A stretch of DNA of 36,307 bases from Rickettsiales bacterium (GTDB lineage Bacteria; Pseudomonadota; Alphaproteobacteria; Rickettsiales; UBA3002). The DNA is taken from positions 1 to 36,307 of the forward strand of contig JBILFK010000001.1 in the NCBI GenBank assembly GCA_044351685.1. The letters are read 5' to 3'. The notes below the pieces were generated by a model that was not told the DNA's origin, did no database searches, and worked only from the letters and a program-made list of their open reading frames with translations. Positions 18,032 to 32,967 of the stretch are shown one piece after another. Each line of letters opens with the position of its first letter. Position 1 is the stretch's first letter. A program made the translations under genes and the position numbers.

Positions 18032-20020
18032 ATGCGTATGACAGTATTTTCAGCAGCACCAACGGCAACCTCACCCGCTCCGGCAGCTCCGGCTCCGGTT
18101 GCACCAGCAGCAGCGGCTCCAGCCCCTGCGGCAGCATCCGTCATTACTATCGGCGGGCAACAGGTGAATCTTGCGAATTTAAGCGTGGAAGATGGGCTTG
18201 CCATCTACCAAATGCTGACGCCAGAGCAAAAACGTCAGGCCGATACCATCGCTGGGTTCGTGCAAAACCACGAACGTACGCTCAATGTTGATATTCCTCA
18301 GAACCTGACACTCGAAAACGCGTATTCACAATATATGGCAGCATTGCGTACCGGTGGTGGCCAGCTTACCGACACCGCAGAGGGCTGGATGCGGCAGATG
18401 GATGCCGCTGTCGGCAATCAGGTACGCGGACAAATGCGTGAACAAATTCCTGGCTATGCTGCTGCAGAAACCGCTGGAAATACCGTTTCTTTCCTTGCCA
18501 ATGCAGGAAGCGCAGCTGTTGAAACGTTTTTCATGGTGCCGTTGTGGAGCCGTGGGCCTGGAGTCATCAGCAATCTGTTTTCTGAAGGTGCAGGGGCAAT
18601 CGGTCAAGGTGCAAGCCCCGAGCAAGCACATGCCTTTGCTGCTGCCTATGTGGCTGCACAAGCCGATGCTGATCGCCAGAATGCGGCCCCGAACGCTTCA
18701 CCTACCCAGCAAGCTCCAAGCTGGATAGATTCTGGCGTGGCGTGGGTGCAAGCTGCCTTCACCTGGTTGATGCATACCGTGCCGTTCATTCCACAAGTGT
18801 TCGAATGGATTGGCAGCGGCTTTGGCAGCTGGGCAGAAGCAGGCAACCGCGTGCATGAAAAACAAGCGCAAGAGCTGCGCGATTTAGGTGGCAACCTGGA
18901 TATTGGTAGCATGCAGCAACGTATTTTAAGCCGCAACGTGACACAGAGCACCGCCGAACGCACACGCCACACCGCAAGTGATATTTTAACCGCTGCTGGC
19001 CGTGTCGCTGATCTTGATGCAGCACCGATTGCAGGCTTGCTTGCCAATGGTGGTTTCTATCAGCGCCAAGATGGTACTCGTGCACGCGTGCGCCCCTTCA
19101 ATGGCACCGCGCTTCAAGAAGAAGTGCTGATGAACCCACAAACCGGTGAGCCAATCACCCGCCTGGATCGTGCGGGGAATGATGTTAGCTCGCTTATTCC
19201 TGGTAACGCTGATGGCGGTAGCTTTGATTTGACAAGCACTGCTGTGGGCACGGTTGCTGGTGGCGCGCTTGCTGCAAAATATCGCGTTCCTCAGCGTGTT
19301 GGTGGATTCATTAACAACAGAATTATTAGCCCGGTGACGGGTCTGGTTGGTCGTGAAGCAACAACGATTCGCACGGCGGCAAATGAAACCGCAGCACTCA
19401 GTCGCGCGGGCTATCTTGGGTTTGCTGGACAAGCGGCATCACCGCTGCTGCGTCGTGCAGGCTACGTGGGCGTAGCGATTGGTGCCGTAGGCGATGCCGT
19501 GTCAGTTGGCGATTCGGCCATCCATGGTGATGGTGCCGGTGTCGCAGTTCACGGCTCCGAGCTGGTAGGCACAGCTGCGGGCGGAGTAGGTGGTGCTATC
19601 GGTGGTGGTTCTGTAGGCGGATGGATTGGTGCTGGAGTAGGCACGGTTATTAGTGGCGTTGTCGGTTTCTTCTCGGGTGGAACGGGATTAGTTGCAGCAC
19701 CTGCCATTATTTCCGCTAGTACGGCCATCGGAACTGTTGCCGGTAGCGTTGCTGGTGGCTGGTTCGGTGCCGATGCAGGCCGGAACGTTGCGGGTGGCAC
19801 CGCGCGCGCACTAGTGGGAGAATCCGCAGTCGATGCGCGTAACAGAGAACAAGCTGATGCATCGGCACGCGTCGAAGCCGCCCGCGATCAGGCGAATGGT
19901 GCCACCGGCGGCTTCCGTTGGCCGTGGGAATCGGCAAGTGCCGATGCACCAGTAGACCCACGCGCTGTTGGTGCAGCAGCACCTGCACGTGGTACACCAA
20001 CCTTACTCGCCGCTGTCTAA
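18032..20020 (+). CDS. Orphan protein with Ala/Pro-rich N-terminus and C-terminal glycine-zipper membrane region
   Basis: 662-aa ORF. ATG 18038 has better spacing to the AAGAG Shine-Dalgarno than 18032. The N-terminus is 'APTATSPAPAAPAPVAPAAAAPAPAAA'. The C-terminal ~130 aa carry GxxxG/AxxxG repeats ('GGVGGAIGGGSVGGWIGAGVGTVISGVVGFFSGGTGLVAAPAIISASTAIGTVAGSVAGGWFG'). No Sec signal. Confidence 0.7.
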   Translation: MRMTVFSAAPTATSPAPAAPAPVAPAAAAPAPAAASVITIGGQQVNLANLSVEDGLAIYQMLTPEQKRQADTIAGFVQNHERTLNVDIPQNLTLENAYSQYMAALRTGGGQLTDTAEGWMRQMDAAVGNQVRGQMREQIPGYAAAETAGNTVSFLANAGSAAVETFFMVPLWSRGPGVISNLFSEGAGAIGQGASPEQAHAFAAAYVAAQADADRQNAAPNASPTQQAPSWIDSGVAWVQAAFTWLMHTVPFIPQVFEWIGSGFGSWAEAGNRVHEKQAQELRDLGGNLDIGSMQQRILSRNVTQSTAERTRHTASDILTAAGRVADLDAAPIAGLLANGGFYQRQDGTRARVRPFNGTALQEEVLMNPQTGEPITRLDRAGNDVSSLIPGNADGGSFDLTSTAVGTVAGGALAAKYRVPQRVGGFINNRIISPVTGLVGREATTIRTAANETAALSRAGYLGFAGQAASPLLRRAGYVGVAIGAVGDAVSVGDSAIHGDGAGVAVHGSELVGTAAGGVGGAIGGGSVGGWIGAGVGTVISGVVGFFSGGTGLVAAPAIISASTAIGTVAGSVAGGWFGADAGRNVAGGTARALVGESAVDARNREQADASARVEAARDQANGATGGFRWPWESASADAPVDPRAVGAAAPARGTPTLLAAV

Positions 20021-20039
20021 GCAGCTAACTCTGGATAAC

Positions 20040-20076
20040 ACGCACGCGGGCATTGCCTTGCGTGCGTTTGCGTTTT
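20040..20076 (+). terminator. Rho-independent terminator candidate
   Basis: ACGCACGC-(12-nt loop)-GCGTGCGT, an 8-bp stem followed by TTGCGTTTT. It starts 20 nt after the stop of the 662-aa gene. Confidence 0.6.
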
Positions 20077-32582: not shown

Positions 32583-32616
32583 GGGGCATTCTCCTTGTTT
32601 TTGTCTTTTTATTTAG

Positions 32617-32967
32617 CTAGCGGCTACAGCCACAAATTTTAGATTTTAGTTCACGGGCGGCATCTACGTGCGCTTGGGTATCATTTTGTACGTTTTCCAA
32701 AGTAATATCGCTTCGTGGGTTGGTATTAAATGTCGATGCCCAGGCCACCACCTCGGCGCCGGTTAAACGGGTATCATCATTCAAATTGACACGCCCTCCC
32801 GAAAGCCCAAGTAATGCACTGGTAAAATCAGGGTTTTGCAAATAGCGTAGCGCAAGCGCCTGAGCTTCTGCAGCCTCAGTGGGTGTATCAGCCACGGTTC
32901 CATCGGGTGCCTCTGCGGCACGACGTATGGCGTTAATTGCGGCAATTACTTCAGCATCGGTTGTCAT
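32617..32967 (-). CDS. Small acidic hypothetical protein, co-oriented partner of the giant ORF
   Basis: 116-aa ORF, 34 nt upstream of the giant gene on the same strand. Acidic and predicted helical. It contains an EF-hand-like loop 'NLNDDTRLTGAE' and ends '...KICGCSR'. No family recognised. Confidence 0.55.
   Translation of the reverse strand: MTTDAEVIAAINAIRRAAEAPDGTVADTPTEAAEAQALALRYLQNPDFTSALLGLSGGRVNLNDDTRLTGAEVVAWASTFNTNPRSDITLENVQNDTQAHVDAARELKSKICGCSR

Follow-up and report, generated by a model that had tools for sequence, protein, structure and literature searches.

The window analysed here is a whole stretch of 36,307 nucleotides from a Rickettsiales bacterium (positions 1 to 36,307 of contig JBILFK010000001.1, assembly GCA_044351685.1), the sequence of which is also part of a 53.7-kb contig of the NCBI assembly GCA_041447075.1. 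We found that its interval 18032-32967 is a patchwork in which housekeeping genes are mixed with a cluster of genes that an uncultured, Rickettsiales-like alphaproteobacterial lineage has conserved, and that this cluster of fast-evolving large proteins, free or nearly free of lysine and cysteine, has not been described before. The cluster consists, in this order, of a gene for a DUF2748 protein, a gene for an N-terminally anchored protein of approximately 800 residues, a flagellin gene in some lineages, and, on the opposite strand, a gene for a giant protein, a small open reading frame (ORF) and rloCBA. It was seen in the window and in the related loci L003, L009, L012, L015, L020, L024-L026, L029/L032 and L033. 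The large proteins of the interval for which we found no known family (hereafter, orphans) are probably exposed or exported envelope proteins. Our fuller interpretation, which we put forward tentatively, is that they are anchored in the envelope or exported and face outward like the flagellin, that they are reshuffled between strains as cassettes, and that two of their genes are switched on together from the operator that they share.

How far does the interval form a unit? An earlier note, made from the sequence alone, had described it as a single 15-kb block in which five ORFs of 662, 441, 786, 1368 and 116 codons without recognisable domains, together with a giant flagellin, made up a candidate surface or secreted-protein system. 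The five ORFs do lie where that note placed them (Table 1), and thyX and msrB are interspersed among the large ORFs as it reported, but they do not add up to one system: the 662-aa gene forms a one-gene unit by itself, with an operator and a terminator of its own, thyX and msrB are housekeeping bystanders unrelated to the feature, and the conserved cluster runs beyond the interval into rloCBA, while another lysine-free orphan of approximately 424 aa lies beyond the opposite border. Correspondingly, the comparison of gene order showed that the block as delimited is not conserved as a unit and that the stretch from the DUF2748 gene to rloCBA is conserved instead. The statement that the ORFs lack domains fails for the 441-aa protein, which matches DUF2748 (PF10871) over residues 7-403 with 326.9 bits against a Pfam gathering cutoff of 25.

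The DUF2748 protein, which is of ordinary composition, belongs to a family that we take, from its Pfam description, to be defined on non-flagellated Rickettsia; a literature search for DUF2748/PF10871 returned nothing relevant. Scans of genome and metagenome collections for this family revealed 20 further loci with orthologues 44-54% identical to that of the window, and in nearly all 20 the next gene encodes a domain-less protein of 630-850 aa. Positional homologues of the 786-aa protein thus follow DUF2748 in more than 10 lineages. The counterpart in L012 shares 26% identity with it over 280 C-terminal residues (E 4e-17), and that in L014 matches at E 1e-4. Eleven of the 12 members of this ~800-aa family that were examined carry an N-proximal transmembrane (TM) helix, which is strongly hydrophobic (Kyte-Doolittle values of approximately 2.0-2.4). 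In sister lineages, the cluster is surrounded by pepA, lptFG, lptD, surA and ksgA. Freshwater and other environmental metagenomes are the source of the related loci, the bins of which carry the labels 'Rickettsiales bacterium', 'Alphaproteobacteria bacterium' or 'uncultured Azospirillum sp.'.

At the other end of the cluster, the rlo genes, recognised by PF05618, by PF14400 with PF14402, and by PF14397 with TIGR02291, correspond to the rloABC operon described previously (PMC12239564). They are co-directional with the genes for the 116-aa and 1368-aa proteins and lie immediately upstream of them. The genes rloC and rloB precede the small ORF in the window, L002, L018 and L033, and in L012, where no small ORF intervenes, rloC is the gene next upstream of the giant. 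Given that this adjacency recurs in L002, L012, L018 and L033, a functional link between rloCBA and the giant may exist.

The giants of the cluster measure 1200-1620 aa and are all encoded on the opposite strand. In the window, the N-terminal module (hereafter, N-module) spans residues 37-164 (32091-32474), and a hidden Markov model (HMM) built from it matches the giants of L001, L014, L015, L018, L024 and L033. The N-module is LysM-like, to judge from its relatives: LysM or PG_binding Pfam matches were found in P0004, P0005, P0015, P0017 and P0018, the LysM being divided into split halves in P0017 and P0018 and forming a separate N-terminal LysM in P0004 and P0005. Most giants end in a weakly hydrophobic segment (residues 1328-1346, or 28545-28601, in the window) followed by a Pro/Gly-rich tail, often with cysteine. 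In the giants of sister lineages, the Pro-rich C-terminal tail frequently contains a CxxC-type pair; these cysteines have been lost from the giant in the clade depleted of lysine and cysteine. The 1504-aa protein of L012 is a positional counterpart only, its profile comparison with the 1368-aa family being not significant; the giant of L033, which matches that of L012 at E 7e-40 and carries the N-module, bridges the two.

A small ORF of 91-138 aa, mostly acidic, immediately precedes the giant in the window, L002, L003, L018, L029/L032 and L033, and its products share C-terminal cysteine motifs (KICGCSR, ECGCSS..., MPCGR, DGVCR and ATCPTS). The cysteine-containing end lies at 32617-32640 in the window, and the ORF itself at 12915-13190 in L029, 7048-7464 in L033 and 349-723 in L018. 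CaaX-type prenylation of this C-terminal cysteine was considered and dropped, as the position of the cysteine is inconsistent among the homologues.

The orphans evolve 20-50 times faster than their flanks. Between the window and L002, the nonsynonymous substitution rate (dN) is 0.006-0.011 for rloB and rloC, with a ratio to the synonymous rate (dN/dS) of 0.03, and 0.17 for the giant; between the window and L003, it is 0.028 for the flagellin (94% identical) and 0.54 for the giant (41-46% identical); and between the window and L010, it is 0.01 for sspB and 0.22 for the 662-aa protein. The non-coding DNA adjoining these genes is 92-100% identical. Likewise, the promoter and leader of the 786-aa gene (23290-23484) are 85-87% identical to positions 977-1145 of L009, whereas the proteins are only 44-46% identical, so that the non-coding DNA is far better conserved than the coding sequence. 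The dN/dS values of the orphans (0.19-0.36) indicate purifying selection, although much weaker than that on the flanks, and because the homologues also keep the same length, we conclude that these are real genes under selection.

In the giant, the divergence is distributed in two blocks. DNA alignments place a breakpoint near position 32100, which corresponds to approximately residue 160. L003 shares the small ORF and the N-module of the window (84.6% nucleotide identity) and has a different body, whereas L002 shares the body (82% nucleotide identity) and has an unrelated N-module and small ORF (27% amino acid identity). It follows from these two reciprocal patterns that the small ORF and the N-module are exchanged together. 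A comparable arrangement was seen in the 662-aa family, in which the 3′ third of the gene has been replaced in L010/L011, giving two alternative Gly-rich C-terminal modules between conserved ends. We propose that the large orphans, which diverge rapidly, are reshuffled between strains by cassette recombination within conserved flanks.

Since the small ORF and the N-module are exchanged together, we infer that the product of the small ORF would bind the first ~160 residues of the giant, as a chaperone, an adaptor or an inhibitor. A class I chaperone of a type III secretion system (T3SS) is a small acidic neighbour of its substrate that binds the N-terminal ~50-150 residues, and at the level of the genes the partner ORF has the corresponding size, charge, adjacency and co-variation with residues 1-160. 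The likeness to a T3SS effector with its class I chaperone thus lies in a small (91-138 aa), mostly acidic, adjoining partner apparently matched to the first ~160 residues; the differences are that no injectisome genes were seen here and that the conserved C-terminal cysteine motif of the partner is foreign to class I chaperones.

The second distinguishing feature of these proteins is their composition, which the earlier note had correctly described as rich in Ala, Gly, Thr and Asn and nearly free of Cys. Five orphans and the flagellin together contain 27 lysines (0.65%) and six cysteines in 4126 residues, whereas the other 20 proteins of the window contain 356 lysines (5.3%) and 66 cysteines in 6710 residues, and the lysine contents of the two sets do not overlap (Mann-Whitney p 4e-6). 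The depleted set contains 7.1% Arg and 6.3% Asn. Because Asn is enriched even though its AAY codons do not differ in base composition, the loss of lysine is not a bias against AA-rich codons; moreover, orthologues in sister lineages with the same GC content of 55-63% contain 4-10% lysine. We accordingly rejected GC content or mutational bias as the cause. The homologues P0002-P0011 show the same depletion, as do the positional counterparts from L012 and L020, and in a neighbour-joining tree of DUF2748 the lineages with depleted ~800-aa forms (the window, L012 and L020) constitute one clade. In L026, the flagellin is lysine-poor and the neighbouring ~800-aa protein contains 7.2% lysine. As a separate observation, the GC content at third codon positions (GC3) is 0.41-0.56 in the orphans (18032-20020, 23485-25845 and 28476-32967) and 0.59-0.67 in the housekeeping genes and the flagellin; because the overall GC of the orphans is equal to or above that of these other genes, this points to a distinct codon usage. 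The window as a whole has a uniform GC content of approximately 54%.

Lysine-poor toxin A chains and 'lysine deserts' show a similarly extreme bias of Arg over Lys within a functional class of proteins and have been interpreted as an escape from lysine-directed conjugation or degradation (PMC10169902, PMC10665810). The present case differs in that whole proteins of up to 1368 aa are affected, in five unrelated families and a flagellin, and in that it concerns one clade and no lysine-directed agent (ubiquitin, protease or conjugation) has been identified. One clade of uncultured, flagellated, Rickettsiales-like bacteria might have purged lysine and cysteine from unrelated exported proteins in response to lysine-directed attack, for example by ubiquitin-type conjugation in a host or by lysine-specific proteases. 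Under this proposal, the purged set would comprise the flagellin and the 662-, 786-, 1368-aa and lipase-like proteins, the giant would be swapped as two cassettes, and the cluster would represent an unrecognised envelope or export module; we consider it rather unlikely as a whole.

The flagellin is a member of its family, with Flagellin_N (PF00669, E 3.7e-23) and Flagellin_C (PF00700, E 7.7e-14) domains and 71 matches at E <= 1e-3 among the flagellins of the PDB, down to E 5.6e-26. The label 'giant' that it had been given does not apply, as giant flagellins have been defined as exceeding 1000 aa (Thomson et al. 2018; PMC6248924). It resembles the large and giant flagellins in possessing canonical N- and C-terminal helical domains and an expanded centre of approximately 520 aa, and differs from them in its length of only 770 aa; flagellins at the same position in related lineages measure 277-294 aa. 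In the window, L003 and L012, a flagellin gene separates the ~800-aa gene from the giant, and in L020 and L026 one follows the ~800-aa gene, where the contigs end before a giant could appear; no flagellin is found between the cluster genes in L015, L024, L025/L033 and L029/L032. With 0.5% lysine, that of the window agrees with the flagellins seen at this locus elsewhere, all of which are lysine-poor (0-1.4%). A literature search on lysine-free flagellins found nothing relevant. Approximately 30 nt upstream of the flagellin ATG, at 26098-26112 (+), lies a sigma-54-like element, TGGCATTTGTTTGGC; a sigma-54-type flagellin promoter was dropped as a candidate, because 30 matches were found where 24 were expected by chance and conservation in L012 was not clear.

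Regulation provides a further connection between two of the orphan genes. The earlier note had observed that two promoters share a Pho box; the 662- and 786-aa genes have the same 19-nt motif upstream, a Pho-box-like element of the form TTGTCAT(C/G)ATGCTGTCACA at both positions listed in Table 1, the putative PhoB target being TTGTCATSATGCTGTCACA. These two promoters contain the sole two exact matches to TGTCA-N6-TGTCA in the window. PhoB promoters are defined by two 7-bp repeats of the TGTCA type with 11-bp spacing, approximately 10 bp upstream of a -10 hexamer, and by binding of PhoB; both promoters have this sequence architecture, which L009 and L010 retain. The copy upstream of the 662-aa gene lies in a region ~96% identical in L010/L011 and is missing from L004, and the copy upstream of the 786-aa gene is kept in L009, with 87% identity of the upstream DNA. 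The operator is putatively of the PhoB type, to judge from this architecture, and another regulator of the OmpR family would also be possible. Because the two genes have this direct-repeat operator in common, phosphate limitation would probably switch them on together.

The 662-aa gene is likely to start at the ATG at 18038, because this fits both the spacing of the ribosome-binding site and the 660-aa call of NCBI. Its product (0.5% lysine and no cysteine) has a Pro/Ala-rich N-terminus, a conserved core, a variable hydrophobic region resembling a Gly zipper (approximately 19499-19831) and a conserved C-terminal tail. The transcription unit ends at a terminator-like hairpin, the spacer of which is 100% conserved in L010/L011. 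The orphan of approximately 424 aa outside the interval contains 0.7-0.8% lysine and a GHSYG nucleophile-elbow motif; a homologue in L004, aligned from about M50, is 44% identical and also lysine-poor. A sub-threshold Lipase_3 match (E 0.06) covers the GHSYG region of this protein, which may be a lipase-like alpha/beta hydrolase.

What relatives do the orphans have? A word-indexed search of 5.8 billion proteins returned five relatives of the 1368-aa protein, two of the 786-aa protein and five of the 662-aa protein, and a HMMER profile of residues 1-905 of the giant retrieved eight proteins from 1.84 billion representatives, five of which share the N-module only. A scan of metagenomes with the N-module alignment gave no match. 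Pfam and NCBIfam searches with the orphans and their homologues yielded no match beyond DUF2748, the flagellin domains and the LysM of relatives; in particular, no families of RTX repeats or autotransporter beta-barrels were found in any orphan. All-against-all BLAST among the orphans detected no shared modules. The AlphaFold2 (AF2) model of residues 1-905 of the giant has a low confidence (pLDDT 50.7), with residues 350-900 helical at pLDDT 70-90 and residues 1-349 modelled without confidence. The homology and structure searches that the earlier note had called for thus brought to light a few lineage-restricted relatives and, DUF2748 excepted, no fold or family.

Where, then, might these proteins reside? 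The note had seen one hydrophobic module in each large orphan, and we located these at residues 34-52 of the 786-aa protein, ~542-560 of the 662-aa protein and 1328-1346 of the giant. Its statement that Sec signals are absent is to be read as the outcome of hydropathy scans, and the N-proximal helix of the 786-aa protein could be a signal anchor. Its view that the proteins are of an exported or surface type is favoured by their composition, fast divergence, cassettes and partner ORF, although no pathway could be assigned. A composition free of lysine and cysteine like that of flagellin, rapid divergence, cassette structure and a chaperone-like partner together fit non-classical exposure or export. 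The route would not be the classical Sec pathway with a cleaved signal; we consider a dedicated system most likely, and the leading candidate would be the rvh-type type IV secretion system (T4SS) of basal Rickettsiales, with the flagellar apparatus less likely. Basal Rickettsiales have been described as having higher GC, flagella, tad genes and the rvh T4SS (PMC9352585), and LysM-bearing modular toxins have been reported in Rickettsiales (PMC11077975). The giant homologue P0004 is encoded within ~2 kb of virB2-, virB4- and virB6-like genes. We regard the T4SS route as plausible, if thinly supported. In the locus concerned, L001 (a 242-kb JGI contig; 3-653 and 4669-10615), P0004 is flanked on one side by a fragment of a lysine-poor, MBG-domain (adhesin-type) protein and on the other by traX and genes similar to virB2/trbC, virB4 and virB6/trbL.

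Several observations weigh against this interpretation. Strains with giants that are only 41-46% identical have flagellins that are 94% identical, a contrast that exposure to the outside alone does not explain. Sister lineages keep normal lysine contents in the same proteins, and the periplasmic or secreted neighbours (MsrB, RloA and the TadE-like proteins) are not lysine-poor, so that the depletion is not a mark of all extracytoplasmic proteins. The T4SS adjacency comes from the single locus of P0004, and neither the window nor the rest of the 53.7-kb contig contains a secretion-system gene. In the absence of a signal peptide, most of a tail-anchored giant would be expected to stay in the cytoplasm. 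For the ~800-aa family, the topology is neutral: the positive-inside rule was uninformative, with counts of 32 and 30, and the N-terminal tails are net acidic. The N-module of the window itself has no Pfam LysM match, even when the N-terminus is scanned alone; sequence and profile searches of the PDB with the orphans found no relatives, Foldseek of the giant model against the PDB returned insignificant solenoid matches with none below E 0.09, and the AF2 model of the 662-aa protein was unusable (pLDDT 29.4).

Could the giant and its small ORF instead be an antibacterial or host-directed effector of the rvh T4SS with its immunity protein or chaperone, the 662-, 786- and 424-aa proteins being further effectors? 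The pair would then be related to the LysM-bearing modular toxins known from Rickettsiales and would work like the X-Tfe/X-Tfi pairs of Xanthomonas. As in those systems, a very large, modular, signal-less protein with a module of peptidoglycan-binding type has a co-oriented small gene immediately upstream, modules are exchanged between strains, and the host lineage is known for the rvh T4SS, with one homologue beside virB genes (PMC11077975). Killing of competing microbes by rvh has moreover been proposed for basal Rickettsiales (PMC9352585, PMC11077975), and the fast divergence, the only moderate hydrophobicity of the segments (Kyte-Doolittle values of 1.65-1.71) and the lysine-free lipase-like neighbour would all be in keeping with secreted effectors. 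However, neither a toxin warhead nor an XVIPCD, CRCT or other effector domain was recognised in Pfam, where no match reached even E <= 0.1. The partner ORFs lack a signal peptide, a hydrophobic leader and a lipobox, unlike a lipoprotein inhibitor, and the partner co-varies with the N-module and not with a C-terminal warhead. No immunity gene follows the giant, the next gene downstream being the convergent flagellin, and no member of the family has a C-terminal Pfam domain, so that it does not conform to a polymorphic toxin either. The strong N-proximal helix of the 786-aa family would normally target a protein to the cell's own inner membrane, and the locus is chromosomal and lies in stable synteny among housekeeping genes, not in the mobilome. 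We judge this explanation unlikely. The same stable synteny, together with the flagellin gene embedded in the cluster in five loci, would suit another, serious alternative, to which we give a similarly low chance: that the orphans are cytoplasm-facing, membrane-anchored scaffolds or landmarks that organise the cell pole or the flagellum, like SpmX, PodJ and TipN of Caulobacter or FimV/HubP, with the LysM-like module serving as a protein-interaction domain. Those proteins are likewise large, fast-evolving, of low complexity, membrane-anchored and linked to flagellar genes, and FimV/HubP contain a LysM domain. The giant combines a cell-wall-type N-terminal domain without a signal peptide, a low-complexity alpha-helical body and a C-terminal anchor, a layout that resembles the overall plan of SpmX. 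Furthermore, the net-acidic N-terminal tails of the ~800-aa family are compatible with an N-out, C-in topology, and the Pho-type operator recalls the PhoB-controlled envelope remodelling of alphaproteobacteria. On the other hand, we found no sequence similarity to any known polarity factor, and the domain order is opposite to that of FimV/HubP. Scaffolding also leaves unexplained both the loss of lysine and cysteine shared with the flagellin and the replacement of alleles in near-identical strains, in which proteins 41-46% identical stand beside flanks 94-99% identical in protein sequence; neither feature is known for polar scaffolds.

Apart from a similar composition and, in some lineages, proximity, nothing speaks specifically for the earlier suggestion that the orphans are exported by the flagellar type III apparatus, or built on or into a modified filament of the large flagellin. 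The flagellin does occur in the cluster in five loci, has the same lysine- and cysteine-free, Ala/Gly/Thr/Asn-rich composition as the orphans, and stands near a small acidic partner ORF that resembles an export chaperone. The flagellin is nevertheless facultative, the clusters of L015, L024, L025/L033 and L029/L032 lacking one between their genes; the 116-aa protein matches no chaperone family of the FliS, FlgN, FlaF or FlbT type; and the strong N-proximal TM helix of the ~800-aa family is atypical of flagellar substrates. For these three reasons, we disfavour flagellar export and consider it improbable. Known flagellar chaperones bind C-terminal regions, whereas the partner here is apparently matched to the N-terminus. 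In addition, the composition of the flagellin and of its ~800-aa neighbour diverges in L026, no other flagellar gene is present on the 53.7-kb contig, and DUF2748 is, by its Pfam description, a family defined on non-flagellated Rickettsia. The remaining possibility, that the block is a horizontally acquired island at ssrA or a set of spurious or decaying ORFs, is the least probable of all and has been effectively refuted. It could draw on the proximity of ssrA, on the low GC3 of the orphans and on the dispersed repeats at gene ends. Yet it is on its promoter side that ssrA faces the block, as the earlier note had stated, that is, 5′ of a minus-strand gene and not at the 3′ end where an island integrated in a transfer-messenger RNA (tmRNA) gene is expected; there is no ssrA-derived direct repeat of at least 12 nt and no integrase-family match in any ORF scanned; and the order sspB-ssrA-662-aa gene-thyX is conserved in relatives. 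The note's own rejection of a classical island is thereby borne out. The overall GC of the interval is the same as that of its flanks, and the ORFs have full-length homologues and dN/dS values of 0.2-0.36. Outward-facing envelope proteins exchanged in cassettes thus remain the interpretation that we tentatively prefer.

The note had also placed copies of a dispersed repeat at gene boundaries. Copies are indeed found where genes end (3′ ends; 16261-16324, 21049-21112 and 4463-4504), but they occur outside the block too. A second repeat element is represented by 21143-21189 and 23222-23267. Apart from these, the intergenic region of tadA and sspB contains an element of 57 nt (16922-16978); L009 contains two tandem copies of it (863-919 and 927-983), 95-98% identical, upstream of a gene for an 813-aa protein, which suggests that it belongs to a mobile repeat family in this lineage resembling repetitive extragenic palindromes (REP) or miniature inverted-repeat transposable elements (MITE). 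The ssrA gene itself was missed by ARAGORN.

The interval is preceded on its left by Tad pilus genes, mreBCD-pbp2-rodA and genes for an ABC-F protein, a tadA-like deaminase and SspB, and followed on its right by the rloA-rloB-rloC operon. The Tad pilus genes at 53-4394 (+) encode minor pilins (two TadE-like and one TadG/VWA-like), and the same left end of the window contains a 339-aa protein with weak Hint-domain matches and a Gly-rich ORF of 247 aa with GGT/GGC repeats. At 10062-12562 (-), two adjoining ORFs of 377 and 456 aa have weak matches to Gln-synt_C and DUF7790 only; they may encode glutamine-synthetase-like amidoligases, which would be of interest given the selection against lysine in nearby genes.

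Table 1. Positions of the genes and signals discussed in the text (coordinates of the window).
Feature	Position	Strand	Remarks
Fifth lysine-free orphan, ~424 aa	14976..16250	+	ORF opens at 14829; outside the interval
ssrA, two-piece (permuted) alphaproteobacterial tmRNA	17546..17888	-	Rfam alpha_tmRNA, 174 bits
Pho-box-like direct repeat TTGTCATCATGCTGTCACA	17973..17991	+	followed after 10 nt by -10-like TAAAAC
662-aa orphan	18032..20020	+	likely true start gives 660 aa
Terminator-like hairpin of the 662-aa transcription unit	20040..20067	+	11-bp stem, then T-run
thyX	20099..21040	+	Thy1 E 3.7e-56; TIGR02170
msrB	21234..21797	-	hydrophobic leader at N-terminus; SelR E 7.9e-48; 9.1% lysine
DUF2748 protein, 441 aa, first cluster gene	21855..23180	+	PF10871 E 2.5e-97
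Pho-box-like copy 2 TTGTCATGATGCTGTCACA	23356..23374	+	followed after 10 nt by -10-like TAGATT
786-aa orphan	23485..25845	+	N-proximal TM helix (23584-23640), then large soluble domain
Large flagellin	26141..28453	+	770 aa from ATG 26141; 792 aa from a TTG start
1368-aa giant	28476..32582	-	LysM-like N-module, all-alpha body, C-terminal segment, Pro/Gly tail
116-aa acidic partner ORF	32617..32967	-	ends in KICGCSR; directly upstream of the giant
rloC (ATP-grasp), rloB (seven-TM, inactive transglutaminase), rloA (retropepsin-like)	33110..36275	-	Pfam/NCBIfam

Basal, flagellated Rickettsiales-like bacteria are models for the transition from a free-living to a host-associated life, and almost nothing is known of their effectors and surface proteins. 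In this respect, the near-absence of lysine and cysteine is a compositional marker by which the exported or exposed proteins of one clade might be recognised. Across many lineages, the cluster ties DUF2748, a family of Rickettsia, to two membrane-anchored giant proteins, and the locus presents a clear natural case of two-module cassette exchange within one gene and its partner ORF. If export of these proteins were shown, they would offer entry points both to the export route and to the selective agent behind the purge of lysine.

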